Shown one piece after another: positions 2,564 to 22,738 of a stretch of DNA of 42,792 nt (position 1 is its first letter; every line of letters begins with the position of its first letter). A program made the position numbers and the translations under genes. The DNA is taken from positions 1-42,792 of the forward strand of contig JALSPJ010000102.1 in assembly GCA_026985995.1 (NCBI GenBank), given 5' to 3'. The notes under the pieces are model-generated. The model ran no database searches. It was not told where the DNA came from and saw nothing but the letters and a program-made list of their open reading frames with translations. The stretch comes from Anaerolineales bacterium (GTDB lineage: Bacteria > Chloroflexota > Anaerolineae > Anaerolineales > DRMV01).

Positions 2564-2579
2564 GGGGGCCCCCATTATA

Positions 2580-2692: not shown

Positions 2693-2704
2693 AAGGGTGC
2701 ACAT

Positions 2705-3098: not shown

Positions 3099-3100
3099 TC

Positions 3101-3133: not shown

Positions 3134-3262
3134 GAGCCCGGGCGCCTCGCCCGCTGGGGCCGAACGCACCGAAACTCGGCCGGGCCGGGGTGGCAAGCAG
3201 GCATCCCGGGGCGCGGCAGGGGCCAAGGCGACCGGCCGCGTGGCGATGGTCGGGAGTAGGGG

Positions 3263-3293
3263 TACAATACAAGCAACCCGACCGCGCGGTCGG
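3263..3293 (+). promoter_or_regulatory. Putative -10 (TACAAT) plus a perfect 16-bp palindrome in the leader of the CPBP protease gene
   Basis: TACAAT at 3263-3268. ccgaccgcgcggtcgg at 3278-3293 is self-complementary and abuts the SD caggagg. Confidence 0.4.
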
Positions 3294-3306
3294 CCAGGAG
3301 GTCATC

Positions 3307-3960: not shown

Positions 3961-3984
3961 ATTCTGCGGAACCGGAGCAGCACC

Positions 3985-5277
3985 ATGACCGCGGATTTCA
4001 TCGACCAGGCGTTCATTTATGTGCGCGGCGGCAAAGGCGGCGACGGCATCGTGCACTTTCGCCGGGAAAAATTCGTGCCTCGCGGCGGCCCCGACGGCGG
4101 CGACGGGGGCCGAGGCGGTGATGTCATTCTGGAAGTCAACCCCCACCTGAACACCCTGGCCCACTTTCAGCATCGCCGGCGCTTCATCGCGCCCGCGGGG
4201 GGCCGCGGCGGCCCCAACAACCGCACGGGCAAATCGGCCGAACCCCTCATCGTGCCCGTGCCCCCGGGCACCGTGGTTTACGACGCGGACACCGGCGACC
4301 TTTTGGGCGACCTCACCGAGCCGGGGCAACGCCTGGTGGTGGCCCGGGGCGGCCGCGGGGGGCGGGGCAACGCGCGCTTCAAATCGGCCCGCTTTCAAAC
4401 CCCCCGCCTGGCCGAAAAAGGCGAGCCCGGCGAAGAGCGCAACCTGCGCTTGGAGCTCCGGCTCATCGCCGATGTGGGCTTAGTGGGCGTGCCCAACGCC
4501 GGCAAATCCACCTTCCTGGCCCGGGTCACCGCGGCCAAACCGAAAATCGCACCCTACCCCTTCACCACCCTGGTGCCCAATTTGGGCGTCGCCCGCCTGG
4601 ATGACGAAACGGCGCTGGTCTTGGCCGACATCCCCGGGCTTATCGAAGGCGCGCACAAAGGCGTGGGCCTGGGGCACGACTTTTTGCGGCATGTGCAGCG
4701 CACCCGGGTGCTCATCCATCTGCTCGACGGCCTGAGCGCCGACCCCGTGGCCGATTTCGACCAAATCAACGCCGAGCTGGCCCTCTTCGACCCCCAGCTG
4801 GCCCAAAAGCCCCAAATCGTGGCCTTCAACAAGATGGACCTGCCCGAAGCCCAGGCCCGCTGGCCCCAGGTGCAGCAGGCCTTGCAAGCCCGGGGCTATG
4901 AGGTTTACCCCATCTCCGCGCTCACGGGGGAAGGCGTGCGCCGGGTGCTGTGGCGAGCCCACGAGCTGCTGCGCGCCCTGCCGCCCCCACCGCCCGAAGA
5001 AGCGCTGCCCGTTTTTCGCCCCAAGGCCGAAGACCCGCGCGCCTTTCGCATCGAGCGCACGCCCGAGGGCTTTCGGGTGCACTCCAAAGCCCTGGAGCGG
5101 GCCGCGGCCATGACTTATTGGGAATACCCCCAGGCCGTGCGCCGGTTCCAGCGCATTTTGGAGGCCCTGGGGGTCAAACAGGCCTTGCGGGAAGCCGGCG
5201 TGCAGCCCGGCGATACGGTTTTCATTGGCGATGTGGAACTGGAATGGCAGGAAGACTACGGCATCGACGAGCCATGA
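3985..5277 (+). CDS. obg: GTPase Obg
   Basis: Glycine-rich N-terminal Obg fold ([33 protein letters not shown]). G domain [25 protein letters not shown]-type C-terminal domain. Confidence 0.95.
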
Positions 5278-5286
5278 TGGTACAAT
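5278..5286 (+). promoter_or_regulatory. Putative extended -10 (TGgTACAAT) for the LysM gene
   Basis: Lies immediately after the obg stop, about 25 nt upstream of the ATG at 5311. Confidence 0.4.
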
Positions 5287-5310
5287 GCTGCCTGCATGGG
5301 AGGCATAGCC

Positions 5311-6102
5311 ATGAAACGCCTGGGATTGCTCCTGCCCCTGGTTTTTGCGTTGGCCCTGGCCTGGTTCGGGGTGCAGGCCCCTGCGCCGGCCCGGGCCGCG
5401 ACCCTGGCCCAGCCCACCCCCTTCCCCACGCCCACGCCCCGGGAAGATGGGGCCATCGTCTACATCGTGCAGCCGGGCGATACCCTGTGGCGCATTGCGG
5501 CCATCAGCGGCGTGCCCATCGAGGAACTGCGCGCCCTCAACGGCCTGCGCTCCGATGTGGTTTCGCCGGGCCAGCCCCTCATTTTGGGCTACGCGGTGCC
5601 CGGGGCTACGCCCACACCGGCCACTGCAAACCAACCAACGCCCACACCCCTGCTGCCCACGCCCACGCCGGTTCCCCAGCTGGGCGTCATTTGCGCCTTC
5701 TTGTTTCAGGATAGCAACGGCAATGCGGTCTTCGACGACGACGAAGTGTATTTGACCGGCGGCGCGGTCAGCCTGCAAAGCCGGGCCGGGTTGCAACGCT
5801 CGGGCACCACCGCGGACGAGCCCTTATGCTTCGAAGACCTGCCGCCCGGCGATTACAACCTGGCCATGGGCATTCCCGAGGGGTTCAACCCCACCACCGC
5901 CACCAACCGCCCGGTGCGGCTGGAAGAGGGCGATACCCTCTATGTGGCCTTTGGCGCGCAGCCGGCCGAGGAAAACCCGGGCCTGCTGGCCGGGGGCGGT
6001 TCCCCCTGGCTGGCCATCGTGGGCGGCGTGTTGGTGCTGGCCGGCGCGGTGCTGGGCTGGTATGCCTGGCGCGCCAGCCGCCCCGCCTATGCGCCGAAGT
6101 GA
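5311..6102 (+). CDS. Secreted or anchored LysM-domain protein with a C-terminal TM segment
   Basis: Signal peptide MKRLGLLLPLVFALALA, LysM (YIVQPGDTLWRIAAISGVPIEELRALNGL), a PT-rich linker, and the C-terminal hydrophobic helix WLAIVGGVLVLAGAVLGWY. GGGAGG lies 7 nt before the ATG. Confidence 0.8.
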   Translation: MKRLGLLLPLVFALALAWFGVQAPAPARAATLAQPTPFPTPTPREDGAIVYIVQPGDTLWRIAAISGVPIEELRALNGLRSDVVSPGQPLILGYAVPGATPTPATANQPTPTPLLPTPTPVPQLGVICAFLFQDSNGNAVFDDDEVYLTGGAVSLQSRAGLQRSGTTADEPLCFEDLPPGDYNLAMGIPEGFNPTTATNRPVRLEEGDTLYVAFGAQPAEENPGLLAGGGSPWLAIVGGVLVLAGAVLGWYAWRASRPAYAPK

Positions 6103-6111
6103 GGGCGAGCC

Positions 6112-6927
6112 GTGCTCCAACGACCCTTGCGTGACCCCCACACCCGGCCCGGCGATTGGGTGCAGCTCACCCAGGTGCAGGGACGGCGCTTTTTCCTCTT
6201 CCGCCTCACCCCCGGCGAGCAGCTGCACACCCACAAAGGCATCATTGCCCACGACGCGCTCATCGGCATCCCTTGGGGCAGCCGGGTCACCACCCATTTG
6301 GGCGTGCCTTTTTATGTCCTGCCGCCCAGTTTGTCCGATATTTTGCGGGAAACCAAGCGCCGCACGCAAATTCTGTTTCCCAAAGACATCGGCTACATCC
6401 TTCTGCGCCTGAGCGTGGGCCCGGGCACCCACATCATCGAGGCTGGCACGGGCTCGGGCGCGCTGACCACGGCCTTAGCCTACGCGGTGGGCGAGCAGGG
6501 GCGGGTTTATTCCTATGAACGCCGGCCCGAAATGCAGGCCCTGGCGCGGCAGAACCTGGCCCTGTGGGGCCTGGAGGGCCGGGTGACCTTCCACCTGCAC
6601 GACATCGCCGAGGGCTTCTTCGAGCGCGGGGTGGACGCTCTGTTCCTGGATGTGCCCACGCCCGAGGCGTATGTGGCCCAGGTGCGGGCGGCCCTGCGGC
6701 CCGGAGGCTTTTTCGGCGCGCTGGTGCCCACCACCAATCAGGTCAGCCGGCTGGTGGCCGCGCTGGCGGCCGCGCACTTTGCCTTCATCGAGGTGGCCGA
6801 AATTTTGCTGCGCTTCTACAAGCCCGTGCCCGAACGCCTGCGCCCCACGGACCGCATGGTGGCCCACACGGGCTACCTCATCTTCGCCCGCCCGGTGGAA
6901 CCGACCGCCCCACCCGAGCCGCAATGA
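6112..6927 (+). CDS. trmI: tRNA (adenine-N1)-methyltransferase TrmI/Gcd14 family
   Basis: N-terminal beta domain (GDWVQL...THKGII.HD.LIG) plus the SAM motif IIEAGTGSGALTTALA. GTG start follows GAGGG. Confidence 0.85.
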   Translation: MLQRPLRDPHTRPGDWVQLTQVQGRRFFLFRLTPGEQLHTHKGIIAHDALIGIPWGSRVTTHLGVPFYVLPPSLSDILRETKRRTQILFPKDIGYILLRLSVGPGTHIIEAGTGSGALTTALAYAVGEQGRVYSYERRPEMQALARQNLALWGLEGRVTFHLHDIAEGFFERGVDALFLDVPTPEAYVAQVRAALRPGGFFGALVPTTNQVSRLVAALAAAHFAFIEVAEILLRFYKPVPERLRPTDRMVAHTGYLIFARPVEPTAPPEPQ

Positions 6928-7571
6928 CCATTCCCTCCAGCGCCGCCTCACCCCCCTGGCAGTGGGAACCCGACCGCCTGCGCCGCGCGTTGCAGCAAGG
7001 CCAGGCGCGTTTGCCCGCGAGGGTGGACCCTTACGGCCCCGCACTGCCCGCGCCCGGCAAGCCCGCAGCCGTGCTGGTGCCCTTCGTGCCCACGCCGCAG
7101 GGCTGGCAGGTGCTGTTCATCCGCCGGGCCGAACACCCCCACGACCCCCACAGCGGACAGGTCTCCTTCCCCGGCGGCCGGCGCGAGCCCTCGGACCCCG
7201 ACGCGCCGACCACGGCTTTGCGGGAAACCCACGAAGAGGTGGGCCTCCCCCCCACGGCCATTGAGCTGTGGCTGCCCTTGCCCCGCCACCGCACGGCCAG
7301 CAACTATTGGGTGGAACCGTGGGTGGGCCAGGTGCGCGACTGGCCCCGGCCCTTGCGCTTGCAGCCCGCGGAAGTGGCCTGGACCTTCACCGTGCCCCTG
7401 GCCTGGCTGGCCGACCCGCGGCATTTGGAACGCCGCTGGCGGCGGGTGCACGGTGTGTTGGTACCCACCTACTACTTTCACTGGCCCCAGGCGCCCATTT
7501 GGGGCGCTACGGCTCGGGTGGTGGTTTCGCTGCTGAACGCGCTGGGCCTGCTGCACCTGCCGCCGGTGTAG
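6924..7571 (+). CDS. Nudix hydrolase, CoA pyrophosphatase type
   Basis: HSGQVSFPGGRREPSDPDAPTTALRETHEEVGL matches the Nudix box plus the upstream NudL-like signature. The ATG overlaps the trmI stop (ATGA). Confidence 0.85.
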   Translation: MTIPSSAASPPWQWEPDRLRRALQQGQARLPARVDPYGPALPAPGKPAAVLVPFVPTPQGWQVLFIRRAEHPHDPHSGQVSFPGGRREPSDPDAPTTALRETHEEVGLPPTAIELWLPLPRHRTASNYWVEPWVGQVRDWPRPLRLQPAEVAWTFTVPLAWLADPRHLERRWRRVHGVLVPTYYFHWPQAPIWGATARVVVSLLNALGLLHLPPV

Positions 7572-7586
7572 GCCCGCCCGCGGCCT

Positions 7587-8888
7587 TCACAGAAAGCCCA
7601 GCTTTTTGGCCTCGCGCCGCAGGTCGGCCCGAAAATCGGGGTGGGCGATGGCGATGAGGGCCTCGGCCCGCTGGCGGATGGTCTTGCCGTGCAAATAGGC
7701 CACGCCGTATTCGGTGACCACATAGTGCACATCGTTGCGGGTGGTGGTCACCCCCGCGCCCGGCTTCAGGGTGGCCACGATGCGCGAGATGGTTCCCCCT
7801 TTGGCTGTGGAGGGCAGGGCGATGATGGGCTTGCCGCCTTTGCTGCGGGCCGCGCCGCGGATGAAATCCACCTGGCCGCCCACGCCGCTGTAGAATTTGG
7901 GCCCAATGGAATCCGCGCACACCTGCCCCGTCAGGTCCACCTCGATGGCCGAATTGATGGCCACCATGTTGTCGTTTTGGGCGATGACGAAGGGGTCGTT
8001 GACATAATCGGTGGGGTGGAATTCCACCATGGCGTTGTTGTCCACGAAGTCGTACAGACGCTGGGAGCCCAACACAAAGCCGACGATGATTTTGCCCCGG
8101 TGCAGGGTTTTGCGCTCGTTGGTGATGACGCCTTGCTCCACCAGCTCCACCACGCCGTCGGAGAAGAGCTCGGTGTGGATGCCCAAGTCGCGTTTGTCTT
8201 TGAGGTAATAGAGCACCGCGTCGGGGATGCCGCCGATGCCCAGCTGCAGGGTCGCGCCATCGGGGATGAGTTCCGCAATGTGCTGCGCGATGCGCATTTG
8301 CACCTCGCCGGGCTGGCCCTGGGGCAACTCGGGCAGGTTGTAGGAAACGGGCACGAAGGCGTCGATTTTGGACACATGGATGAAGGAATCGCCCAAGGTG
8401 CGGGGCATACGATCGTTGACCTCGGCGATGACCACCCGGGCGGCCTCGGCCGCGGGTTTGGTGATGCCCACTTCCACCCCAAAGGAGCAAAAGCCGTGTT
8501 CGTCGGGGGGCGAGACATGGATGAGGGCCACATCTAAGGGCAGTTCCTGGCGGAACAGGCCCGGCACTTCGCTGAGGAACACGGGCGTGAAATCGGCCCG
8601 GCCCTCGTGCACGGCCTGGCGCACATTGGCGCTGATGAACAGGGTGTTCACCCGCAGCCGGCCTTCCAGGTCGGGGCTCACATATTCCGCGTCGCCCACG
8701 GTGAGCACCTGGACGATTTCCACATTGTCGATTTCCCCGGCCCGGGCCCGCTGCACCAGGGCCTTGAGCACGGTTTGGGGCACCGAACAGTTCCCCGTGA
8801 GGAACACCCGCTGGCCCGAGCGAATGCGTTGCACCGCGTCTTCCGCGGTGGTCATGCGTTGGTGGTAGATGCGCTCCCAGTAGGCCAT
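7587..8888 (-). CDS. Acetyl-CoA hydrolase/transferase family protein (4-hydroxybutyrate/succinyl-CoA:acetate CoA-transferase-like)
   Basis: Family-typical SAIEVDLTGQVCADSIG and GGQVDFIRGA. Start MAYWERIY is preceded by GGGGAGG, 1 nt after the ald stop. Confidence 0.9.
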   Translation of the reverse strand: MAYWERIYHQRMTTAEDAVQRIRSGQRVFLTGNCSVPQTVLKALVQRARAGEIDNVEIVQVLTVGDAEYVSPDLEGRLRVNTLFISANVRQAVHEGRADFTPVFLSEVPGLFRQELPLDVALIHVSPPDEHGFCSFGVEVGITKPAAEAARVVIAEVNDRMPRTLGDSFIHVSKIDAFVPVSYNLPELPQGQPGEVQMRIAQHIAELIPDGATLQLGIGGIPDAVLYYLKDKRDLGIHTELFSDGVVELVEQGVITNERKTLHRGKIIVGFVLGSQRLYDFVDNNAMVEFHPTDYVNDPFVIAQNDNMVAINSAIEVDLTGQVCADSIGPKFYSGVGGQVDFIRGAARSKGGKPIIALPSTAKGGTISRIVATLKPGAGVTTTRNDVHYVVTEYGVAYLHGKTIRQRAEALIAIAHPDFRADLRREAKKLGFL

Positions 8889-8889
8889 G

Positions 8890-9990
8890 TCACGCCTCCC
8901 CGTGGCTGGCCCAAACCTGGTACAGGGCCGGGTGTACGATGCGTCCATCCCGGGTTTGCACGCCCCGGGCCAGGGCGGGGAAGTCCCGCAGGGCCGCGTC
9001 CAGGCCCCGGTCGGCGATGGCTTGCACCCAGGGCAGCAGCGCGTTGCTGATGGTGTGCGTGGCGGTGCGGCCCAGCACGCCCGTAACATTGGGCACGCAG
9101 TAGTGGATGACACCCTCTTCGACGAAGGTAGGGTGGTCGTGTTGGGTGGGCCGGCTGGTTTCGGCCGCGCCGCCCTGGTCGATGGAAAAATCCATCAGCA
9201 CCGAGCGGGGGCGCATGGTGCGCAGCAGCTCCCGGGTGACGATGACAGGCGCGCGGTAGCCGGGCTGGTTGACGGCCAGCACCAGCACATCGGCGAAGGA
9301 AAGCACCTTACGCACATTGTGCGCGGTGGCCAGCAGGGTCACCACCCGACCGTGGGACCAACGGTCCACGGCTTCCAGGGCCTGGGGCCGCACATCCAGG
9401 GCATACACCGAGGCCCCTAAGGCGGCGAAGGCCAGCGCGGCCTCGCTGCCCACGGAGCCCACGCCAATGATGACCACCTCGGCGGGGGGCACGCCGGGCA
9501 CGCCGCCCAGCAAAATGCCTTTGCCGCCGGCGTCGTTCCGCAACAGGGAACCGGCGATGGTGGGCGCGAAACGCCCGGCCAGTTTGGCAATGGGGTGCAG
9601 CAGGGGTTTGTAGCCGTCGTCTTCCTGAATGGTTTCCAGGGCGATGGCCGTGACCCGGTTTTCCAGCAGTGTGCGCACTTTGTTGGGGTGGGCCGAGGCC
9701 AGGTGCAAAAAGGCCATGAGAACCTGGCCCTCGTGCAAGCGTTCCAGCTCCTCTTGCAGCGGCCGGGTGACTTTGACCACCAGTTCCCCGCGCTGGTAGG
9801 CTTCTTCCGCGGAATAGACGATGGTCGCGCCCGCGGCTTCGTAGTCGGCGTCCCGAAAGCCCGAGCCCGCGCCGGCCTGGTGTTCCACATACACCCGATG
9901 CCCCCGTCGGGTGAGCTCGTGCACCGCGGCCGGGGTCAGAGCCACCCGATATTCGCAGGGGCGACGCTCTTTGGGCAGGCCGATGTCCAT
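8890..9990 (-). CDS. ald: Alanine dehydrogenase
   Basis: MDIGLPKE..EYRVALTP N-terminus and NAD fold VVIIGVGSVGSEAA. GGAGGG lies 5 nt before the ATG at 9990. Confidence 0.92.
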   Translation of the reverse strand: MDIGLPKERRPCEYRVALTPAAVHELTRRGHRVYVEHQAGAGSGFRDADYEAAGATIVYSAEEAYQRGELVVKVTRPLQEELERLHEGQVLMAFLHLASAHPNKVRTLLENRVTAIALETIQEDDGYKPLLHPIAKLAGRFAPTIAGSLLRNDAGGKGILLGGVPGVPPAEVVIIGVGSVGSEAALAFAALGASVYALDVRPQALEAVDRWSHGRVVTLLATAHNVRKVLSFADVLVLAVNQPGYRAPVIVTRELLRTMRPRSVLMDFSIDQGGAAETSRPTQHDHPTFVEEGVIHYCVPNVTGVLGRTATHTISNALLPWVQAIADRGLDAALRDFPALARGVQTRDGRIVHPALYQVWASHGEA

Positions 9991-10110
9991 CGTTTCCCTC
10001 CGGTCAAGGCTACTTTGATTATACCGACGGGCAGGGGTGCAGGAAGGCACGCGTCGCGGACGCCAGTTCCCCTGAAAACCCACGGCCCCCAAAAGCGGGG
10101 GCCACGCGGG

Positions 10111-10563
10111 TCATTCCTCGAAAATCCAGCGGTCCAGGTCTCGCTGCCACTCGACCAATTCTTCGGGGCGGAACCACAGCCCGATTTCGAAGGCCGCGGT
10201 TTCGGGGCCGTCGGACGCGTGGGTGAGGTTGCGCCCGATTTGCAGGCCAAAGTCGTGGCGAATGGTGCCGGGCGCGGCCTCGGTGGGCCGGGTGGCGCCC
10301 ATGGTCTGCCGCACCGCGGCGATGGCGTTGGGGCCTTCCCATACCATGGCCATCACCGGCCCCGAAGTGATGTAGGCGATGAGGCCCTCGTAGAAGGGCT
10401 TTCCTTTGTGCACCGCGTAGTGTTGTTCGGCCAATTCGCGGGAGACCCGCATGAACTTGGCCGCCACCAGGCGCAGGCCGCGGTTTTCGAGCCGGCGAAT
10501 GACTTCGCCAATCAGGCCCCGTTGCACGCCGTCGGGTTTGACCATGACGAAAGTGCGCTCCAT
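10111..10563 (-). CDS. ndk: Nucleoside diphosphate kinase
   Basis: [22 protein letters not shown]...NLTHASD (active-site His). Confidence 0.95.
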
Positions 10564-10577
10564 GAAAACGCCTCCTG

Positions 10578-10606
10578 AAAAAGAAATGGGGCCCCGTTGG
10601 GGGCCC
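10578..10606 (-). terminator. Possible terminator hairpin after the giant repeat gene
   Basis: The minus strand reads GGGCCCCC-AAC-GGGGCCCC (7 bp with one C:C mismatch) followed by ATTTCTTTTT. It abuts the ndk SD. Confidence 0.4.
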
Positions 10607-10627: not shown

Positions 10628-13600
10628 TCAGCGAAGCAACTCTTCGGCCTTCATGTAGGTGTCCAAGGCGTCTTGCAGCCGTCCGGCTTTGGCAAACGCG
10701 TCGCCCAGGAGTTGCAGCAGCTCCACGCTCATGGGGTAGTAGTACTGGGCCTGCAGCAGGTCCTCGATGACCTCGGTGAGGTATTTGCGCCGACGCACCA
10801 AGCGGCGGTAGTAACGCAGACCGGTTTCCAGCTCGTAACGGGCGATGGCCTCCCGGGCGCGGCGCAGGTCCTCTAAGTAGGGGTCGGCCTCCACCGGCAA
10901 GGGCTTGAGGGGCATGGTTTCCGGCGGCGGGATGTGTTGTTGCGTGGGCACCCACGCCGGTGGGGTGATGTCCACGGCTTCCTCTTCGTCGCTTTCGGTG
11001 ACCTCCTGGACCCACTCCAAGGCTTCTTGCCCCAAGGGGTGGGTTTCGCGCGCCTGGGCCGGGGCTTCGGCTTCGGTCGTGGGGGCCGGTGCTTCGCCGG
11101 TGGTGGCCCACTCCTGCGGTGGGAGCAGCCACTCGGGGGGTTCTTCCTCCACCTGAGGGCGCTTTCGCGACCCGGCTCCGCGGGGTTGGGCCTCCATCCA
11201 GGCCAGGTTGGCGATGGCGTCTTCCAGCGCCTCGGGGGAGGGCGGTGCCATGTCTTCCTCGGCCTCGGGGCCGGGCGGCGCTTCGGTCTTGCCGGGTTCG
11301 GGTTGGGCCTCGGCCGCGGCTTCGGCCAGCCAGTCGGGCAATTCGCCGGCTGCCGCGGCTTCGGCCTCGGCTTCTGGACGAGGTAGCGCCTCGCCCCTAC
11401 CGGGTTCGGGTTCGGGTTCGGGTTCGGCCGTGGGTTCGGACTGGGCTTCGGCCAGCCACTCGGGGAGTTCCGCGGCCTCCGAGGCTTCGGCCTCGGCCTC
11501 TGGGCGAGGCAGCGCTTCGTCCCTACCGGGTTCGGCTTCGGCCGTGGGTTCGGGTTGGGTTTCGGCCGCGGCGGGCGCTTCCGCGGCTTCGCGGAAGGTT
11601 AGCAGCTCCTCGGTCTTGGCCCCCTGCCGCGCGGCCAGCTGTTCCAGCCAGGCCAAGGCCGCCTCTTCATCGCTCAGGGCTTCCAGGGGAATTTCTGCCT
11701 CGGCCGCGGCTTCGGCTTCGGCCTCTGGGCGAGGCAGCGCCTCGCCCCTACCGGGTTCGGGTTCGGCCGTGGGTTCGGGTCGGGTCTCGGCCGCGGCTTC
11801 GGCCAGCCAGTCGGGGAGTTCCGCGGCCTCCGCGGCTTCGGCCGCGGCCTCCGGGCGAGGCAGCGCTTCGCCCCTACCGGGTTCGGGTTCAGCCGTGGGC
11901 TCGGGTTGGGCTTCGGCCGCGGCTTCGGCCAGCCACTCGGGGAGTTCGCCGGCTTCCACGGCTTCGGCCTCGGCCTCCGGGCGAGGCAACGCTTCGCCCC
12001 TACCGGGTTCGGCTTCGGCCCCGGCGGGTTCAGCCTCGGCCGCGGCTTCGGCCAGCCATTCGGGCAATTCGCCAGCGGCCGCGGGCTCGGCTTCGGCTTC
12101 CGGGCGAGGCAACGCCTCGCCCCTACGGGGTTCGGGTTCGGCTTCGGGGCCGGGCGGCGCTTCGGCCGCGGCGGCTTCTTCCGCGGCTTCGCGGAAGGTC
12201 AGCAGCTCCTCGGTCTTGGCGCCCTGCCGCGCGGCCAGCTGCTCCAGCCAGGCCAAGGCCGCCTCTTCGTCGCTCAGGGCCTCCAGGGGGATTTCTGCCT
12301 CGGCCGCGGCTTCGGCTTCGGCCTCTGGGCGAGGCAACGCCTCGCCCCTACCGGCTTCGGCTTCGGCCGTGGGTTCGGACTGGGCTTCGGCCGCGGCTTC
12401 GGCCAGCCAGTCGGGGAGTTCCGCGGCCTCCGCGGGTTCGGCCTCGGCCTCCGGGCGAGGCAACGCCTCGCCCCTACCGGGCGGCGCTTCTGCCCGGCCT
12501 TCGGCCTCGGCGGGCTCTTCCGCGGCTTCGCGGAAGGTCAGCAGCTCCTCGGTCTTGGCGCCCTGCCGCGCGGCCAGCTGCTCCAGCCAGGCCAAGGCCG
12601 CCTCTTCGTCGCTCAGGGCTTCCAGCGGGATTTCCGCCTCGGCCGCGGCTTCGGCCTCAGCCTCTGGGCGAGGCAGCGCTTCGCCCCTACCGGGTTCGGC
12701 CTCGGCCGTGGGTTCGGGTTGGGTCTCGGCCGCGGCTTCGGCCAGCCAGTCGGGGAGTTCCGCGGCCTCCGCGGCTTCGGCCGCGGCCTCTGGGCGAGGC
12801 AGCGCTTCGTCCCTACCGGGTTCGGGTTCGGCCGTGGGTTCGGGTTGGGTCTCGGCCGCGGCTTCGGCCAGCCAGTCGGGGAGTTCCGCGGCCTCCGCGG
12901 CTTCGGCCTCCGGGCGAAGCGGCGCTTCGCCCCTACCGGGTTCGGCCTCGGCGGGCTCTTCCGCGGCTTCGCGGAAGGTCAGCAGTTCTTCGGTCTTGGC
13001 CCCCTGCCGCGCGGCCAGCTGCTCCAGCCAGGCCAAGGCCGCCTCTTCGTCGCTCAGGGCTTCCAGGGGGATTTCCGCCTCGGCCGCGGGCTCGGCTTCG
13101 GCCTCGGGGCGAGGCAGCGCTTCGCCCCTACCGGGTTCGGGTTCGGCCGTGGGTTCGGGTTGGGCCTCGGCCGCGGCTTCGGCCAGCCAGTCGGGGAATT
13201 CGCCGGCTTCCGCGGGTTCGGCTTCGGCTTCTGGGCGAGGCAACGCCTCGCCCCTACCGGCCGTGGGTTCGGCCTCGGCCCCGGCGGGTGCGGCCTCGGC
13301 TGCGGCTTCGGCCAGCCACTCGGGCAATTCGCCGGCGGCCGCGGCTTCGGCCTCGGTCTCCGGGCGAGGCAACGCCTCGCCCCTACGGGGTTCGGGTTCG
13401 GCTTCGGGGCCGGGCGGTGCTTCGGCCGCGGTGGGTTCTTCCGCGGCTTCGCGGAAGGTCAGCAGTTCTTCGGTCTTGGCCCCTTGCCGCGCGGCCAGCT
13501 GTTCCAGCCAGGCCAAGGCCGCATCTTCGTCGCTCAGGGCTTCCAGGGGGATTTCCGCCTCGGCCGCGGCTTCGGCCTCGGCCTCCGGGCGAGGCAACGC

Positions 13601-16264
13601 CTCGCCCCTACCGGGCGGCGCTTCTGCCCGGCCTTCGGCCGCGGCGGCTTCTTCCGCGGCTTCGCGGAAGGTCAGCAGTTCTTCGGTCTTGGCACCCTGG
13701 CGGGCGGCCAGCTGCTCCAGCCAGGCCAGGGCCGCATCTTCGTCGCTCAGGGCTTCCAGGGGGATTTCTGCCTCGGCCGCGACTTCAGCCTCGGCTTCTG
13801 GGCGAGGCAGCGCTTCGCCCCTACCGGGTTCGGGTTCGGCCGTGGGTTCGGACTGGGCTTCGGCCGCGGCTTCGGCCAGCCACTCGGGGAGTTCACCGGC
13901 TGCCGCGGCTTCGGCTTCGGCCTCTGGGCGAGGCAGCGCTTCGCCCCTACCAGGTTCGGGTTCGGCCGTGGGTTCGGGTCGGGCTTCGGCCGCGGCTTCG
14001 GCCAGCCAGTCGGGCAATTCGCCGGCTTCCACGGCTTCGGCTTCGGCCTCTGGGCGAGGCAGCGCCTCGCCCCTACCGGGTTCGGGTTCGGCTTCGGGGC
14101 CGGGCGGTGCTTCGGCCGCGGTGGGCTCTTCCGCGGCTTCGCGGAAAGTCAGCAGTTCTTCGGTTTTGGCCCCCTGCCGCGCGGCCAGCTGCTCCAGCCA
14201 GGCTAAGGCCGCATCTTCATCGCTCAGGGCTTCCAGGGGGATTTCTGCCTCAGCCGCAGGTTCGGCTTCGGCCTCGGCTTCTGGGCGAGGCAGCGCCTCG
14301 CCCCTACCGGGTTCGGGTTCGGCCGTGGGTTCGGGTTGGGCTTCGGCCGCGGCTTCGGCCAGCCAGTCGGGCAATTCGCCAGCGGCCGCGGCTTCGGCTT
14401 CGGCCTCTGGGCGAGGCAGCGCCTCGCCCCTACCGGCTTCGGCTTCGGCCGTGGGTTCGGACTGGGCTTCAGCCGCGGCTTCAGCCAGCCACTCGGGGAG
14501 TTCGCCGGCTGCCGCGGCTTCGGCCTCCGGGCGAAGCGGCGCTTCGCCCCTACCGGCTTCGGCCTTGGTGGGCTCTTCCGCGGCTTCGCGGAAGGTCAGC
14601 AGCTCCTCGGTCTTGGCACCCTGGCGGGCGGCCAGCTGCTCCAGCCAGGCCAAGGCCGCCTCTTCGTCGCTTAGGGCTTCCAGGGGGATTTCTGCCTCGG
14701 CCGCAGGTTCGGCTTCGGCTTCTGGGCGAGGCAGCGCCTCGCCCCTACGGGGTTCGGGTTCGGCCGTGGGTTCGGACTGGGCTTCGGCCGCGGCTTCGGC
14801 CAGCCACTCGGGCAATTCGCCGGCTTCCGCGGGTTCGGCCTCGGCTTCTGGGCGAGGCAGCGCTTCGCCCCTACGGGGTTCGGGTTCGGCTTCTTCGACC
14901 GCGGCCGCGAGCCAATCGGGGAGCCCGGTTTCTTCCACGGGCGCGGCGGCTTCTTCCATCGGCGTGCTTTCCAGCCAGGTGGCCAGGTCTTCTAACGCGC
15001 TCTCTGCGTCGCCCTCGGGAAGCCAATCCGCGGTCCCCGCGGGCCCCTCTTCGGCTTCTGCCGCAGGCTCGGCCGCGGTTTCCGCTTCGGCCGCGGCTTG
15101 CTGGGCGCGCAGGGCTTGCAGCCACTCGGGAATTTCGCCCTCGACCAGCTCGGCTTCTTCTTCCTCCTCGGCCTCATCCCCGACCGGGGCCTGGGCTGCT
15201 GCGGCGTCTAAGGGAACGGACGGGTCGCGCGGCGCCCAGCCGCTCTTCTGCATCCACTCGGGGATGAGCTCCTCGGCCTGCTCGGGAGGAACATAAGGGC
15301 CACTCTCGGCCGATGTTTCCTCGGCCTCGGCCGTTTCTACCGCCTCGCTGAGGGCGAAAATTTCGTCCTCGGGTGGGCCGGTGTCCTCTTCCTCGTCCAG
15401 CAGGCCCGTTTGCCGGGCCACGGCTTCCAGTTCCTCCAGCATGGGCATTTCGGCCTCGTCGGGCGCGGGCAGGGCATCTAAGTCGCTGGTGAACTCCATC
15501 TCCAGCCGCGGGATGCGCACCTTTTCGGCCGGAACCTGCTCCGCGGTGGGGAATTCGTTGCCGACGAAGGCCTCGTAGGGGTCCAGCTCCAACACCCGGG
15601 ACCAGTATTGCTGGGCTTCTTCCTCCCGGCCCTGACGCCGCAGGATGGCGGCCATGATGCGGTTGGCCTGCAGACAGTAGGGCAGTTTTTGCAGCAGGCG
15701 CTGGGCTGTGTCGATGGCTCGCGCCCATTGCTGGGCCTCGAAGTACGCCTGGGCCAGCAGGGCCTGGGCGTCCAGGCGGCGCGGGTCTTGCTGCAGCACG
15801 GCCTGCAATTCGATGATGCTTTGGTTGTACAGTCCACTTTGCAGATAGACGCGCGCCAGAGCCACCCGGGTGAAACGAATACGCGGCGGGGCAACGCCAT
15901 CCCGCTCCCGATACAGGCGGCGCAGTTCCTCCTGGATGGCGACATGGGTGGGCTGGGCCTCGAACGCGCGCTCCATGTGCCAGATGGCCGCGTCCAGGTT
16001 GCCCTCTTCTTCGCGGATGGTGGCCATGCCGAAATGGGCCAAAAAATCGTCGGGCACAGCCGACAGCACCCGTTGGAAGAGGTCCGCGGCCTCGGGAAAA
16101 CGCCGGTTGCTGAGGTAGATTTCCCCCAGCACCCGATAGACAGGCAGATATTTGGGGTAATGGCGCAGGATGTGCCGGGCGTGCAGAATCGCCTCTTCGT
16201 AGCGCTCGTCCTGCACCATTTCTACAATTTGTTGCAGATAAGTGCGCAAACCGATTTCGTTCAT
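10628..16264 (-). CDS. Giant (1878 aa) TPR-flanked, highly acidic modular repeat protein
   Basis: N-terminal TPR region (about 290 aa) and a C-terminal TPR-like region are joined in one frame by an Ala/Glu/Pro-rich array. The ATG at 16264 begins [14 protein letters not shown]; the track ORF starts 29 codons upstream. Confidence 0.85.
11290..14893 (-). repeat. In-frame tandem array: 23 H modules ([14 protein letters not shown]) followed by 15 W units (ELP[ED][17 protein letters not shown]) or 8 B units ([11 protein letters not shown][ED][29 protein letters not shown])
   Basis: Counted by hand on the DNA. Each H module contains the 21-nt palindrome GGGCGAGGC-nnn-GCCTCGCCC (example 11727-11747). 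First copy at 11376-11396, last at 14850-14870. Units are near-identical at DNA level. Confidence 0.9.
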
Positions 16265-16308
16265 GGTCGTGCCTCGCCGCGCGCCGAAATGCGGGTGAAC
16301 CTGGCAAT

Positions 16309-16337
16309 AGTATATCAACAATCCACAACCTTGTCCA
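16309..16337 (-). promoter_or_regulatory. Putative sigma-70-type promoter of the giant gene (TGGACA-17-TATACT)
   Basis: On the minus strand the -35 TGGACA is at 16337-16332, followed by a 17-nt spacer and the -10 TATACT at 16314-16309. This lies about 45 nt upstream of the ATG. Confidence 0.5.
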
Positions 16338-16369
16338 TGACCCGCGACCATATAAGAGGAAGTCGCGGC

Positions 16370-16846
16370 CTACCCATCGTCGCCTGCGCCTCGGGAGGAA
16401 GGCCCTTGGGGAGGACGCGCGCTGGGCGGCGCGTACAGGGGAAGCAGGTCCTCTAAATCGGGATGCCGCGCCAGCATGGCCCGCACCAGGCGCAGCAAAT
16501 GCTCCCGGGGCCAGCGGGCCAGGCTTTGCCGGTAAACCGACGCCGGCCGGAACTGCCCGGGGTGGGCCAGCCAGTGCAGCAGCACCGCGGCCACATGCTT
16601 GCAGCGCCCATCTCGGCCTGCGGGGCAGGTGCACCAGGCCTCGCCGATGCCCGCGGGCGTCAGGCGCACTTCCACCCGGTAAGGCTCACGCGCCTGGCCC
16701 TGGCACCAGGCTTTGAGGCGCCAGCCCTCCCGCCGGGGGTGCAGCACCCGCCCCTGGCGCTGATACCACTGCCCCCGTTTGAACGCGTTGGGGCCCACCC
16801 ATTGCTGCACCGCGCGCGCGTCCAACGACGGTTCCACCGAGGACAT
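16370..16846 (-). CDS. SWIM zinc-finger protein
   Basis: CTCPAGRDGRCKHVAAVLLH matches the CxC..CxH SWIM signature. GGAGG lies 8 nt before the ATG at 16846, and a TACAAT lies at 16881-16876 on the minus strand. Confidence 0.8.
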   Translation of the reverse strand: MSSVEPSLDARAVQQWVGPNAFKRGQWYQRQGRVLHPRREGWRLKAWCQGQAREPYRVEVRLTPAGIGEAWCTCPAGRDGRCKHVAAVLLHWLAHPGQFRPASVYRQSLARWPREHLLRLVRAMLARHPDLEDLLPLYAPPSARPPQGPSSRGAGDDG

Positions 16847-16985
16847 GACAGGTGCCTCCAACCCGGGCTGCTTTCATTGTAGAAAGCCCGGCGGGCGAGG
16901 TCAAGCCACGGGGTCATATCCCACACCAACGCGGGGAGGACGGCGATGGGGAGCGGCGTCCTCGGTGGCTGGCGGCTGGCGGCTG

Positions 16986-18886: not shown

Positions 18887-19666
18887 ATGGCTTCGGCCCC
18901 CCGGTTTTTGCTTTTGCAGGCTCGCAACCCCAACGACCCGGTGCGCGAAGAAGAGCGGCAGGCTTTCGTGGTGGCTGCCGGCCTGCCCGACGACGCGGTG
19001 GTCACCCACGACCTGCTGCAGGGGCCGCCGCCCAGGGCCATGTGGCAAGCCTTCGACGGCCTGTTCGTGGGCGGCAGCGGCGAATACAACCTCTCCGACG
19101 GCAGTTGCCCGCACCTGGCGGCCACGCTGGATTTTCTGCTGGAAGTCGTGGCCGCGGGCAAGCCCATGTTCGCCTCGTGCTTTGGCTTTCAGATGCTGGC
19201 CGTGGCCTTGGGCGGCACGGTGGAGCGGGATGTGCACCGGGCCGAAATCGGCACCTTCCCCATCACCCTGACCCGGGAGGGCCGTGCGGATGACCTCTTC
19301 GGCCAGCTACCGCCCCGCTTTTGGGCCCAACTGGGGCACAAGGAACATGTGACCCGCTTTCCTTTCGCCAAGGCCGTGCTGCTGGCCCGCTCCGAGCGTT
19401 CGCCCTATCAGGCGCTGCGCATCCCGGGCGCGCCCATTTGGGCCACCCAGTTCCACCCCGAGCTGGACCAGCAGCGCAACTTAGACCGCCTGCTGCGCTA
19501 CCGGGATTTGTATGTGGCGCATTTGGGGGAAGCCGGCTTTCAGGCCCTGCTGGACCAATTTCGGCCCAGCCCCGCGGCCGACGAATTGTTGCCCCGCTTT
19601 CTGTATCTGGTATTTGGCTGGCTGGGCCCCCGCTGGAAGCACAATCACGGCTCAGGAGGGGCTTGA
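18887..19666 (+). CDS. Class I glutamine amidotransferase-like protein
   Basis: CFGFQMLAVALGG (nucleophile Cys) and ATQFHPE. AGGAGG spacing favours the second ATG at 18887 over 18881. Confidence 0.85.
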   Translation: MASAPRFLLLQARNPNDPVREEERQAFVVAAGLPDDAVVTHDLLQGPPPRAMWQAFDGLFVGGSGEYNLSDGSCPHLAATLDFLLEVVAAGKPMFASCFGFQMLAVALGGTVERDVHRAEIGTFPITLTREGRADDLFGQLPPRFWAQLGHKEHVTRFPFAKAVLLARSERSPYQALRIPGAPIWATQFHPELDQQRNLDRLLRYRDLYVAHLGEAGFQALLDQFRPSPAADELLPRFLYLVFGWLGPRWKHNHGSGGA

Positions 19667-21075
19667 GGCGTCGCGGATGCGGGTTCCAACCGCTGCAAAG
19701 AGCGCCGGGCCAGCACAGCCACGGGGTCGCCGGACGGCGCCCATTGCAGGGCCTGCCGCAGGTGGTCGCGGGCCTCGCCGGTGCGCCCCGCCTGCGCGGC
19801 CAGCCAGCCCAGGTAGAGGTGCGCCTCGGCCAGGGTGGGGTCCTGGGCCAGGGCGCGGTCGAGGAACCGGCGGGCCAGGGTCATGTCGCCTTGCTGCAAG
19901 TAAGCATACCCCATGAGGGCCAGCGCGGTGGGGTGCTGCGGGTGTTGGGCCAGCACCGCGCGCAGCGCGGGCAGCGCGACGGGTTCCGCCAGGCCCCACT
20001 GGAGGGCCAGGCGGGCCAGGGTGAGCCGCGCCCGGGGGTCCTGGGGGTGAATCCGCACCGGGTAACGCAACAGCGCCAGGGCCGGTTCCACCTGGCCGGG
20101 CAGGGCTTGCGTGAGCGCGGCGGCCAGGTTAGCGGCCAGCGCGGGGTTGTCGGGTTCCAGGGCCCAGGCCCGGCGGGCCCAGGCCAGCGCGGTGAAGGGC
20201 CGGTTTTGCCCCTGGGCCCAACGGGAAAGGAGCAGCATGGGCAGGGGGTCGTGGGGGGCCAGGCGTCGCGCCACCCACAGCGCGCCCGCGGCCCTTTGGG
20301 GCCACCCCAGGCGCAGGGCCCCTTCCCCAAAATAGGCCCACGCCGGGGGGTAGGCCGGGTTGTGGCGCACGGCCAGGGCCCAGGACCAGGTGGCCAGGTC
20401 CCAACGGCCTGCGGCGGCCAGGGCGCGGCCCACGAAAGTGCGGGCGTACGCCGGGTCGTCGGCCAGGGTGGCTTCGGCCAGGGCCTGGGCCACCCGCTGT
20501 GCGGCCCGGGCCCGGGGGGATGCGTCCTGGGCCAGTTCGGTGAGCAAGGCGCGCGCCTCGGGCGCGGGGAAGGCGGCCGCGGCCAGGTGCAGCGCGTATT
20601 CGTAGCGGTAGGCTGCCGGGGGCTGGGGCGCGGTTTGCACTGCCGCGCGCCAGGCCGCGGTGGCCCGGGGCCAGGCGTGGGCCTGGTCCGCGGCGCGGGC
20701 ATAGCGGGCCCACAGGGCCGCGGCCGTGGGGTCGGGTGTGGCGGCATAGCCCGGCAGGGTGAAGGCCAGGCCCGCGCGGTCCAGCGCGGGGCCGAAGAGG
20801 GCCTCCCACGCCGCGAGGGCCCGGTCCCATTGCCCGCTGCGGGCCAGGGCCAGCGCGTAGCGGTAGGTCGCGGCCGGGTCCGCGGCCGCGTCGGCGTCCT
20901 GGGCTGCCAGCCACGCGCCGGCCGCGGCGAAGCGCGCCTCGCGCCAGGCGCGCGCGGCGCGCTGCTGTGCAGCAGCGTAAGGCGCAGCCTGGGCCCAACG
21001 GTGGGCCGCATACAGCGCACCGGCCAGCAGCCCGAGCAACAGCCAGGGGGCGAGACGATGCCAGTTCCACGGCAT
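19645..21075 (-). CDS. Membrane-anchored TPR-repeat protein
   Basis: N-terminal hydrophobic anchor APWLLLGLLAGALYAA, followed by Ala/Leu/Trp-rich TPR-like repeats to the C-terminus. The 3' end overlaps the GATase gene by 22 nt. Confidence 0.75.
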   Translation of the reverse strand: MPWNWHRLAPWLLLGLLAGALYAAHRWAQAAPYAAAQQRAARAWREARFAAAGAWLAAQDADAAADPAATYRYALALARSGQWDRALAAWEALFGPALDRAGLAFTLPGYAATPDPTAAALWARYARAADQAHAWPRATAAWRAAVQTAPQPPAAYRYEYALHLAAAAFPAPEARALLTELAQDASPRARAAQRVAQALAEATLADDPAYARTFVGRALAAAGRWDLATWSWALAVRHNPAYPPAWAYFGEGALRLGWPQRAAGALWVARRLAPHDPLPMLLLSRWAQGQNRPFTALAWARRAWALEPDNPALAANLAAALTQALPGQVEPALALLRYPVRIHPQDPRARLTLARLALQWGLAEPVALPALRAVLAQHPQHPTALALMGYAYLQQGDMTLARRFLDRALAQDPTLAEAHLYLGWLAAQAGRTGEARDHLRQALQWAPSGDPVAVLARRSLQRLEPASATPQAPPEP

Positions 21076-21081
21076 GGCCGT

Positions 21082-21087
21082 ATTGTA
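21082..21087 (-). promoter_or_regulatory. TACAAT box 6 nt upstream of the TPR gene ATG (possible leaderless transcript)
   Basis: The minus strand reads GGGTACAATACGGCCATG with no SD. Confidence 0.3.
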
Positions 21088-21111
21088 CCCGGCAACGCCG
21101 CAGGGGTGCGG

Positions 21112-21117
21112 TATAAT
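21112..21117 (+). promoter_or_regulatory. Putative -10 TATAAT for the HxxEH-holA-PLD-LysM operon
   Basis: gcggTATAATgg lies 53 nt upstream of the ATG at 21171. No clear -35. Confidence 0.35.
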
Positions 21118-21170
21118 GGCTCTGGCCGATGGCCCCCAACATTCCCCGCCACCGGCAGGAGCACACCCTC

Positions 21171-21707
21171 ATGGCCTGGTTGGATACGATTTTGCGTTGG
21201 TTCCCCGCGCTGGCGCGCACCCGGCAGCATCATGCGCTGGAGCACGCCACCCTGCACCTGTTGGCCAAACGGTTCCCCCAGCAGGCGTTGGCCGGGCATT
21301 CGGACCCGGCCGGCTTTTGGATTTTGGGCGCAGTGCCCACCGAAGCCGTGGAGCAAGCCGTGGCCGAGGCCCTCACCCGCCTGCAGCAGGGGGAACACCA
21401 CCTGGCGCTGCACCCCGGTTGCGGCACCAACTACCTGGCCCTGGGCAGCCTGGCGGCCGCGGCCGGGCTGGTGGGCTTCGCCGGCACCCGGCGCTGGCGC
21501 GAGCGCTGGGAGCGGTTCCCCCTGGTGGTGTTTTTGAGCATGTTGGCGCTGATTTTCGGTCGGCCGTTGGGCTTTTGGCTGCAGCGGGAAGTGACCACGG
21601 ACCCGCGCGTGGACGATGTGGAAATCGTGGCCGTGGAAGCCGCGCGGCGGGGCCGTTTCCCCGCCCACCGGGTGACCACCCGTCGGGTTCCCCCCACCAC
21701 GCCATGA
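21171..21707 (+). CDS. Conserved-looking hypothetical membrane-associated protein with HHALEH and HPGCGTN motifs
   Basis: The ORF has AGGAG 9 nt upstream, His/Cys-rich motifs in the N-terminal half, and a hydrophobic segment FPLVVFLSMLALIFGRPLGFW. Its stop overlaps the holA start (ATGA). Confidence 0.65.
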   Translation: MAWLDTILRWFPALARTRQHHALEHATLHLLAKRFPQQALAGHSDPAGFWILGAVPTEAVEQAVAEALTRLQQGEHHLALHPGCGTNYLALGSLAAAAGLVGFAGTRRWRERWERFPLVVFLSMLALIFGRPLGFWLQREVTTDPRVDDVEIVAVEAARRGRFPAHRVTTRRVPPTTP

Positions 21708-22738
21708 GCGCCGCGCGACCGGTTCCCAAGGTTTACATTTTCTACGGCGACGACCACGCCCGCCGGGGGTTGTATCTGGCGCGGGTGCGGCAGCGCCTGG
21801 CCGAGCGCAGCGGGGCCGCCTGGGCCGAGCTGAATTACCAGCGCCTGAGCCCCGACACCCACAGCCTGGACGACCTGCGCACCGCGGTGCTGGCCGCGCC
21901 CCTTTTCGTGGCCCGCCGGCTGGTGCACGCGGTGGAACCCCTGGCCTGGGCCAGGGACGCGGCCAGCCGGAGCCGCTTCCTGCGCATTTTGGAGGAAGTA
22001 CCCGCCAGCACCGCACTGGTGCTGGACATTGGCCAGCGCCTGGACGAAGGACGCCGCAACCGGCCCGCGCACTGGCTGCTGGCCTGGGCCCGGCAGCAGG
22101 GACCCGAACGGGTGTATGTCAAGGCCCTGCCCGCGCCGCGCGATGTGCACGGCATGGTGCAGTGGTTGTTCCAGGCCGCCCGCGACGAGGGCGCGCGTTT
22201 CACCCCCCAGGCCGCGCAGGCCTTGGCCGCCATGGTGGGCACCGATACCCTGCGCGCGCTGCAAGAGGTGCGCAAGCTGGCCCTCTATGCCGGCGAACGC
22301 GCCATCACCCCCGAGGATGTGACCGCGCTGGTGCAGGGCGATTGGGCGCCCAATGTGTTCGAGTGGCTGGACCTGGTGGGCGCGGGGCAAACCCAGGCCG
22401 CATGGCGCTATTTGCAGCGGCTGCTGGAACACGACGACGCGGCCCGGGTGTGGAATTTGGTGCTGCGCCACTTTCGCCTGCTGCTGGCCGTGCGCGATGC
22501 CCAGGCTCGCGGCGCGGACCTGGCCGCGGTGCTGGCCACCTGGCGCGTGCCGCCTTTTGCCCATGGCCGCTACGCCCGGCAGGCGGCGCGCTTTTCCCTC
22601 GACGCGCTGCGGGCGCTGTATCGGCAGCTCTACGCGCTGGAAGCCCGCTTTCGGCGGCATGAAATCACCCTGGAAGAAGCCCTGGAAGCCCTGCTGGTGT
22701 ATCTCACCGCCCCTCAAACGAGGCCGAACCCGGCATGA
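21704..22738 (+). CDS. holA: DNA polymerase III delta subunit
   Basis: VYIFYGDD...L..LR....A.PLF..RRLV N-terminal pattern, with length and helical C-terminus typical of HolA. This is motif-level recognition only. Confidence 0.75.
   Translation: MSAARPVPKVYIFYGDDHARRGLYLARVRQRLAERSGAAWAELNYQRLSPDTHSLDDLRTAVLAAPLFVARRLVHAVEPLAWARDAASRSRFLRILEEVPASTALVLDIGQRLDEGRRNRPAHWLLAWARQQGPERVYVKALPAPRDVHGMVQWLFQAARDEGARFTPQAAQALAAMVGTDTLRALQEVRKLALYAGERAITPEDVTALVQGDWAPNVFEWLDLVGAGQTQAAWRYLQRLLEHDDAARVWNLVLRHFRLLLAVRDAQARGADLAAVLATWRVPPFAHGRYARQAARFSLDALRALYRQLYALEARFRRHEITLEEALEALLVYLTAPQTRPNPA

Follow-up and report, generated by a model that had tools for sequence, protein, structure and literature searches.

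A contig of 42,792 nucleotides from an Anaerolineales bacterium (JALSPJ010000102.1, assembly GCA_026985995.1; the whole stretch is called the window below) encodes on its reverse strand a polyanionic protein of 1878 amino acids (aa), with tetratricopeptide repeat (TPR) domains at both ends and a long, regular repeat array between them. By sequence comparison, this protein is an expanded member of a widespread, unnamed protein family of the Chloroflexota, found mainly in the Anaerolineae, and the peptide motifs of each array copy are, as judged from substitution patterns, held by purifying selection. The explanation we favour is that the protein acts as a soluble, cytoplasmic, multivalent scaffold of the "stickers-and-spacers" type, and we give it about an even chance of being correct. 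The family definition and the evidence for selection on the motifs are solid; the function is what we infer.

A Chloroflexota family with TPR ends and two peptide motifs

The family was defined in the present analysis and has no Pfam or NCBIfam model. Its members combine an N-terminal domain of seven TPRs (N-TPR), a polyanionic, largely disordered region with W motifs, one or more B motifs, and a small C-terminal TPR-like domain (C-end). The W motif is a short [ILF]P[DE]W[LM] helix. The B motif, D.DAA.AWLE.LAA.QGA..EEL, is a helix-turn-helix of about 30 residues that occurs in one to many copies per member; in 22 instances from the family its W, L, E, L, A, G and L positions never vary. A homology search with the N-TPR retrieved 179 database proteins at 47-54% identity; the named homologues carry only the descriptions "hypothetical" or "tetratricopeptide repeat protein" and are assigned to Chloroflexota, Anaerolineae, Anaerolineales or Aggregatilineales. 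The N-TPR signature PK(H/Y)...YR is present in the 1878-aa protein. When one genome per species was scanned with the N-TPR, at least 536 loci were found to encode relatives. The best 80 of them are all from Chloroflexota, mostly Anaerolineae, and include Bellilinea caldifistulae GOMI-1. The closest relatives among the loci listed (L001, L002 and L012) have 85-90% identity in the N-TPR. A literature search found no paper on the family.

The B motif and C-end were followed separately. A HMMER search with one B unit against 1.84 billion representative sequences returned 503 proteins, after a word-indexed homology search with the same unit had found nothing; all B-motif matches bearing names are from Chloroflexota. 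Among the 150 best B-motif proteins, 132 have the C-end; some members carry as many as 15-20 B motifs, and the longest has 2378 aa. In a homology search with the C-terminal 209 aa, the sole match was a fragment (P0121, 70% identity), and the C-end was traced via the orthologous loci instead; its signature, ...LGDA[YF]...LQ.AL..Y..A..L, occurs in the 1878-aa protein and in most complete orthologues. Across about 1.3 Mb of flanking DNA translated in six frames, open reading frames (ORFs) with two or more PxW motifs occur in the family gene only, and B motifs are likewise confined to it. The density of PxW motifs is 2.4-fold higher in proteins with the N-TPR, by counts that ignore phylogeny.

Where the ORF call is intact, each orthologue is encoded by a single gene, and its product, mostly of 750-1730 aa, shares the N-TPR, the B motifs, an acidic central region with PxW[LM] and a C-end of the form ...LGDAY.R...LQ.AL.AYTKAEELLR. 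Frameshifts in the assemblies account for five shorter calls (337-765 aa). The single-gene architecture first proposed for the 1878-aa protein is also that of the three closest relatives, each with one ORF, and of most of the family. The proteins of these three relatives have 1048-1137 aa and 3 B units each. A comparison of length and repeat number among orthologues, which had been proposed with the original prediction, covered 52 fused orthologues sampled regardless of B content. Their median length is 1116 aa and their maximum 1730 aa, with 0-4 B motifs by a strict regular expression (orthologues negative by this expression carry looser B motifs). The 1878-aa protein is longer than all of these and its B count lies above their range, placing it at the long extreme of the sample. 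It has 19 PxW motifs, compared with 3-28 in orthologues. The family gene appears to be frameshifted into pieces in a number of assemblies of metagenome-assembled genomes (MAGs; L011, L030, L031, L059, L065 and L071); the likely cause is faulty sequencing or assembly of the acidic repeats.

Two lineages have split versions of the gene. At L081 (6434-10407), a 263-aa TPR gene is followed by a 1032-aa gene (7309-10407) and then by ndk; the 1032-aa gene opens near the conserved IPDWMKEAGW motif and encodes PxW motifs, the C-end and an HHH_3 domain of the ComEA type. TPR proteins of 263 aa that stand alone make up clusters of considerable size. At L082 (Aggregatilineales, 2006-9003), a 1270-aa gene with the TPR and W regions and without the C-end is followed by a 1000-aa gene with at least six B motifs and the C-end. 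The breaks fall at different points, yet the resulting genes are neighbours in each case, which speaks on sequence grounds for TPR and motif parts that act together and are functionally coupled. The original prediction had held that orthologues with the flanking TPR parts as separate genes would speak against it; L081 and L082 do have separate genes, but these are adjacent and restricted to minority lineages, and they do not count against the fused gene. In about 27 of 207 members (including L081, L004, L005, L034, L014 and an Anaerolinea thermophila MAG) an HHH_3 domain directly precedes the C-end; none was found in the 1878-aa protein.

The 1878-aa protein and selection on its repeat array

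The gene lies within an uninterrupted ORF of 1907 codons on the reverse strand (10628..16351). All orthologue N-termini begin at an equivalent M..I.LR.Y, which is residue 1 when translation starts at the ATG at 16264. Since all orthologues start there and a promoter-like site lies just upstream (about 45 nt 5' of this ATG), we consider this to be the right start; the version of the ORF extended upstream to 16351 is probably not used. From the ATG at 16264, the coding sequence (CDS) runs through 1878 codons and a stop without a break, as originally predicted. The coding frame is established by homology at both ends and by the B copies, whose codon differences are synonymous at 16 of 17 variable positions. 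A GC hairpin (10606-10589) sits in the 64-nt gap between the stop of the gene and ndk. Coordinates of these and other features are given in Table 1. Two long forward-strand ORFs over the array (11089-15267 and 11208-15296; 1392 and 1362 aa) were rejected as compositional shadows of the GC-rich repeat. A 93-nt tRNA-Arg(tcg) called by ARAGORN on the non-coding strand within the array (12866-12958, forward strand) was also rejected as almost certainly a false positive, because Rfam shows no tRNA there at the gathering score.

The protein consists of 24% A, 22% E and 11% P, with an isoelectric point (pI) of 4.06 and a net charge of -327; residues 251-1794 account for about -320 of this charge, at a pI of about 4.05. 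No signal peptide was found, the sequence opening directly with the first TPR helix, and no segment of the protein reached the grade of a membrane helix (the top 19-residue Kyte-Doolittle mean was 0.84). Lack of both a signal peptide and a hydrophobic segment points to a soluble, cytoplasmic protein.

Both ends of the protein fold confidently in AlphaFold2 models and have TPR structures as their only structural neighbours, and the description of the protein as TPR-flanked is therefore correct. For the N-terminal block, Pfam gives TPR_2 at 5e-20, with TPR repeats within residues 1-240, and AlphaFold2 (alignment of 69 sequences) predicts 14 helices over residues 1-250 at a predicted local distance difference test (pLDDT) score of 97-98. 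At the C-terminus, Pfam shows only a weak TPR_8 match, and a model of residues 1506-1878 contains a five-helix domain at 1795-1877 with pLDDT 96-98. Foldseek, which had been suggested for the two ends, and PDB sequence searches returned generic TPR proteins at high root-mean-square deviation: consensus TPR, OGT, PEX5 and APC subunits for the N-TPR, and three-repeat TPR modules (Hip, HOP TPR1, Sgt2) for the C-end. The nearest folds of the two ends (OGT, PEX5, HOP TPR1, Hip and Sgt2) are peptide-binding TPR modules.

Past residue 250 the AlphaFold2 confidence is low outside the motifs; short helices (pLDDT 70-84) coincide precisely with those of the W type. Predictions for the W and B units, also proposed at the outset, were obtained within these larger models and gave short helices for W and a helix-turn-helix for B (535-548 and 552-563 at B unit 1). 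The model of residues 1506-1878 also has helices over B unit 8 and over a segment that resembles a degenerate B unit. W motifs scored a pLDDT of about 70 in models that include the N-TPR and of 46-59 in those that lack it, a difference too weak to serve as evidence. A B-motif profile had no match to PDB sequences at E<=10, and no entry describing the B motif or the C-end was found in Pfam, NCBIfam or PDB sequences. Matches of the B unit to DUF7793, the GSU3529 family, ANTAR, DUF2610, DUF494 and EF-Ts_N (Pfam/NCBIfam) were rejected as family assignments because they are short, partial helix matches below the cut-offs and have no consistent meaning.

Each of the 23 modules of the array begins with an H unit (RGEALPRPE), and its second element is a W unit (ELP[ED]WLAEAAAE) or a B unit. 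Regular expressions counted 23 H (R[GD]EA[LP][PL]RPE), 15 W (E[LF]P[ED]WLAEA) and 8 B units, exactly the numbers first reported, in the order WBWWBWWBBWWBWWBWBWWWBWW. W modules are 40-45 aa long (mostly 42) and B modules 65-77 aa; Tandem Repeats Finder (TRF) gave periods of 126, 213, 339, 441 and 483 nt, with scores up to 1907. The array, of about 1200 residues, has a net charge of -245, and its basic residues are held solely by the H unit. The earlier description of these residues as almost entirely Ala/Glu/Pro was right about which residues dominate and slightly overstated their share, which is about 67%, the remainder being chiefly L, R and G. Degenerate [ILF]P[ED]W[LM] motifs, which the original prediction placed on both sides of the array, were found at 334, 378, 448 and 1709. 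Those before the array are IPEWM (334), IPEWLQ (378), ATWLES (about 425) and LPDWLA (448), and the linker after the array holds a degenerate B-like helix (about 1677-1691) along with the W motifs PPEWLL (1709), EALEWVQ and PPAWVP.

Table 1. Features of the gene for the 1878-aa protein and its immediate neighbours in the window
Feature	Position	Strand	Basis
Complete CDS, 1878 aa plus stop	10628..16264	-	ORF analysis and orthologue N-termini
Promoter-like site TGGACA-17-TATACT with upstream TG (sigma-70-like, extended -10)	16309..16337	-	Consensus match only
N-terminal TPR domain, residues 1-250, 14 helices, 7 TPR-like hairpins	15515..16264	-	Pfam, AlphaFold2
Acidic linker with older degenerate W motifs, residues 251-464	14873..15514	-	Motif search, AlphaFold2
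Family-wide IP[DE]WM.x.GW motif, residues 334-343	15236-15265	-	Orthologue comparison
Repeat array, residues 465-1667, 23 modules	11264..14872	-	TRF, regular-expression counts, composition
B unit 1, residues 526-558	14591..14689	-	Regular expression, AlphaFold2 helix-turn-helix
B unit 2, residues 675-707	14144..14242	-	Regular expression
B unit 3, residues 834-866	13667..13765	-	Regular expression
B unit 4, residues 905-937	13454..13552	-	Regular expression
B unit 5, residues 1065-1097	12974..13072	-	Regular expression
B unit 6, residues 1212-1244	12533..12631	-	Regular expression
B unit 7, residues 1325-1357	12194..12292	-	Regular expression
B unit 8, residues 1525-1557	11594..11692	-	Regular expression; AlphaFold2 pLDDT about 82
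Post-array linker, residues 1668-1794	10883..11263	-	AlphaFold2; conserved in P0121, L001, L002, L012
C-terminal TPR-like domain, residues 1795-1878, five helices	10631..10882	-	AlphaFold2, Foldseek
Terminator-like GC hairpin GGGCCCC-AACG-GGGGCCC, then T-rich run	10579..10606	-	Consensus match only
ndk, nucleoside diphosphate kinase	10111..10563	-	Pfam NDK 9e-58, NCBIfam equivalog
SWIM zinc-finger ORF, 163 aa, upstream neighbour	16370..16861	-	ORF and locus comparison

Selection on the array was assessed from copy-to-copy ratios of non-synonymous to synonymous divergence (dN/dS), calculated by the Nei-Gojobori method. The ratio is 0.026 for the B core and 0.06-0.08 for the H unit; it amounts to 0.45-0.49 in the W core, chiefly through alternation of E with D and of G with A, and to 0.46-0.7 in the spacers. 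The eight B units, at 89-98% identity, differ at 17 codons, of which 16 vary synonymously and one is an E/D replacement. Compared with the three closest relatives, the spacers differ completely and the W and B cores persist. For the N-TPR against close orthologues, dN/dS is about 0.05-0.09. Among the close relatives the H unit is shared with L002 only, though it is constrained like a functional motif.

The synonymous divergence dS between array copies is 0.2-0.35, and that between the gene and its three closest relatives is 0.7-1.3, both for the TPR ends and for ndk. Because copies are less diverged from each other than the orthologues are, the array was amplified or homogenised after the split from the nearest sampled relatives. 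The [ILF]P[DE]W[LM] and B motifs are present in all orthologues, and the original view of a recent expansion of an older motif agrees with both observations.

Candidate function and competing explanations

In the lineage of the source organism an H-W or H-B module was amplified to 23 copies, which makes the 1878-aa protein one of the longest members of its family. Confident TPR ends, a polyanionic, mostly disordered middle, three short peptide elements constrained strongly or throughout the family, the lack of export or membrane signals and a variable valency together suggest the scaffold reading. According to this model, the two TPR ends would be peptide-binding modules. What docks on the W and B helices could be the protein's own TPR ends, which would give networks or condensates, or other proteins as clients. 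Extension and self-repulsion of the chain would come from the Ala/Glu/Pro spacers, and valency would be tuned by the motif copy number. A more specific version, which we put forward tentatively and regard as rather unlikely in its full form, is a Chloroflexota-specific self-assembling hub. Here the N-TPR would bind PxWL helices and the C-terminal mini-TPR would bind B hairpins, in cis and in trans. The valency of the resulting cytoplasmic network or condensate would follow from how many motifs there are (1 to about 20), and its task in these multicellular filaments would be to organise core machinery, for example NDK or, in members with HHH, the chromosome; such a hub would be an independent counterpart of eukaryotic TPR/Trp-motif systems.

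Several points weigh against the scaffold reading. The constraint on the W core is moderate (dN/dS about 0.45-0.49), and common descent would suffice to explain why the B motif co-occurs with the C-end and PxW motifs with the N-TPR. The number and order of modules depend on the assembly, and any binding partner, self-association or particular localisation of the protein would be putative. The presence of HHH_3 in about 27 of 207 members is a hint of a DNA-related role, for which the scaffold model has no need. The pairing with ndk is not explained by the model either. In the window, 64 nt separate the stop of the 1878-aa gene from ndk, which has the same orientation; of the 60 loci with a complete family ORF, 51 have a co-oriented ndk as the next gene downstream (median gap, 72 nt), and in five further loci (effectively 56/60) it is farther along only because the family gene is frameshifted, leaving four of the 60 without it. 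This pairing is far steadier than that with any other neighbour.

The HHH_3 domain, found also in the Anaerolinea thermophila MAG, speaks for a different explanation, in which the protein is a nucleoid or nucleic-acid polyanion, that is, a nucleic-acid mimic or a tether to the chromosome or RNA polymerase, with the TPR ends anchoring it to a partner. The net charge would suit such a role, rpoD adjoins the family gene in 39 of the 80 loci, and the window holds information-processing genes (holA-like, obg, transfer-messenger RNA [tmRNA] and signal recognition particle [SRP] RNA). However, HHH_3 is a minority accessory domain, no HHH or other nucleic-acid-binding domain was found in the 1878-aa protein or in its three closest relatives, and synteny with rpoD, seen at only some of the loci, is missing from the window. 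The strongest constraint, moreover, falls on hydrophobic, Trp-centred motifs and not on the charge pattern. We consider a nucleic-acid role unlikely, and a weaker rival than the scaffold reading.

Two other explanations concern the array itself. The gene could be real and its 23-module number or order inflated or scrambled by assembly across near-identical repeats: the array has 37 pairs of exact internal repeats of at least 75 nt (the longest of 104 nt), the closest relatives have only 1048-1137 aa and 3 B units, and several MAG assemblies contain a family gene broken up by frameshifts or fragmentation. No exact internal repeat of 125 nt or more was found in the array, however, and the copies are distinct sequences because they differ at synonymous sites; with many such differences among B units of 89-98% identity, the copies represent distinct loci and not a duplicated consensus. 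The frame is also open across 5.6 kb, and proteins of 1700-2378 aa, some with as many as 15-20 B motifs, have arisen independently in other lineages. A partial assembly artefact is, on this evidence, quite improbable. A neutral, low-complexity expansion, in which slippage adds "junk" to a disordered linker and only the TPR ends are functional, would account for the simple A/E/P composition of the spacers, their dN/dS of 0.46-0.7 and the free variation of repeat number between relatives. For the motif cores it is contradicted by ratios of 0.026 (B) and 0.06-0.08 (H) at a dS of about 0.25-0.35, and the B and PxW motifs are conserved family-wide at saturation of dS, leaving it with very little probability.

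The original prediction compared the protein, by architecture, with FimV/HubP-type landmark proteins, polar proteins of Vibrio, Shewanella and Pseudomonas. HubP/FimV proteins have an N-terminal periplasmic LysM-like peptidoglycan-binding domain, a large acidic, largely unstructured cytoplasmic region in which the number and length of imperfect repeats shift from one close relative to the next, and, at the C-terminus, a domain of TPR type to which client binding is attributed (PMC12918733). A signal peptide and one transmembrane segment also characterise them. The 1878-aa protein resembles them in its very low pI, its imperfect acidic repeats of varying number and its C-terminal TPR-type domain, and this part of the comparison stands. 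A LysM domain (no Pfam match at E<=1), a signal peptide, a membrane segment and a FimV domain were not found, the NCBIfam FimV models, N- or C-terminal, having no match to the whole protein at E<=1 or to the C-end at E<=10; the sole NCBIfam match of the C-end at E<=10 was PrsT TPR (E=0.013). Since LysM, membrane segment and FimV domain were looked for and not found, the protein is not a member of HubP/FimV. In place of the periplasmic anchor it has an additional, highly conserved, cytoplasmic N-terminal 7-TPR domain, and its repeats carry defined Trp-centred motifs. The host phylum is the monoderm Chloroflexota, not the Proteobacteria, and three of the four features that define HubP/FimV are lacking. 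That the protein is a divergent HubP/FimV landmark by homology has, in our judgement, a next to negligible probability; the likeness may be functional at most, and a "hub/scaffold" function is a reasonable analogy.

The scaffold reading has further parallels in form elsewhere. PEX5 carries WxxxF/Y motifs, and kinesin light chain (KLC) has W-acidic motifs ([LM]xW[DE]). Like the 1878-aa protein, both combine a TPR domain with multiple Trp-centred linear motifs in acidic disorder; they differ in being eukaryotic, in having homology limited to the generic TPR fold and in a motif other than [ILF]P[DE]W[LM], and binding between motif and TPR in the 1878-aa protein is predicted by analogy with them. 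PopZ, of about 180 aa, has an acidic, Pro/Glu-rich disordered linker between helical interaction modules. By analogy with this arrangement, multivalency in the 1878-aa protein would tune assembly, but PopZ has no TPR, no repeated Trp motifs and no homology to it. Binding of short linear motifs by the TPRs of KLC has been covered elsewhere (PMC13078783). The best NCBIfam matches of the N-terminal domain, MamA and PilW(PilF), share with it a generic TPR superhelix of about 200-250 aa. With 63.1 bits for MamA (NF040959; cut-off, 200) and 42.1 bits for PilW (TIGR02521; cut-off, 154), the protein belongs to neither; it has no lipoprotein signal and no magnetosome or pilus gene context, and those families are without the acidic array and C-end. 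Functionally, the 1878-aa protein is best seen, by analogy, as a variant of the acidic TPR-scaffold theme.

Neighbouring genes and meaning for the Anaerolineae

Apart from ndk, the surroundings of the family gene vary. The upstream neighbour is rpoD in the 39 loci mentioned above, and H+-pyrophosphatase occurs in 47 of the 80. The SWIM zinc-finger gene upstream of the 1878-aa gene was rejected as a partner and family feature because its position is conserved only in the three closest relatives. Elsewhere in the window there is a second, unrelated TPR protein of 476 aa (19645-21075, reverse strand; 28% Ala, 5% Trp), with a hydrophobic N-terminus, whose gene lies in a stretch of 78% GC. A tmRNA lies at 2705-3099 on the forward strand (Rfam, 112 bits); the tag peptide called by ARAGORN, ARAQEVPCALLSLPCPLRPNAAIAG, looks atypical and may be mis-framed. 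Housekeeping genes in the window include those for an Obg GTPase (3985-5277, forward strand) and a DNA polymerase III delta-like protein (holA-like; 21074-22738, forward strand). The window also contains a gene for an InhA-like peptidase (25991-28114, reverse strand), an SRP RNA (28078-28177, reverse strand) and a GC-skew excursion at 27-28 kb.

The Anaerolineae are abundant, mostly uncultured filamentous bacteria. The present analysis defines for them a class-wide family, encoded near housekeeping genes, that joins two TPR ends to two strongly constrained peptide motifs. Were the array only a tolerated linker expansion, this definition would still be useful, though of modest interest. If the proteins are multivalent hubs, the family would be the first candidate organiser of subcellular architecture in the Chloroflexota, and its members would form a natural valency series, from 1 to about 20 motifs, for learning how repeat number tunes the behaviour of a scaffold. 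The 1878-aa protein is a particularly regular and highly expanded example, suited to peptide-binding and condensate assays.

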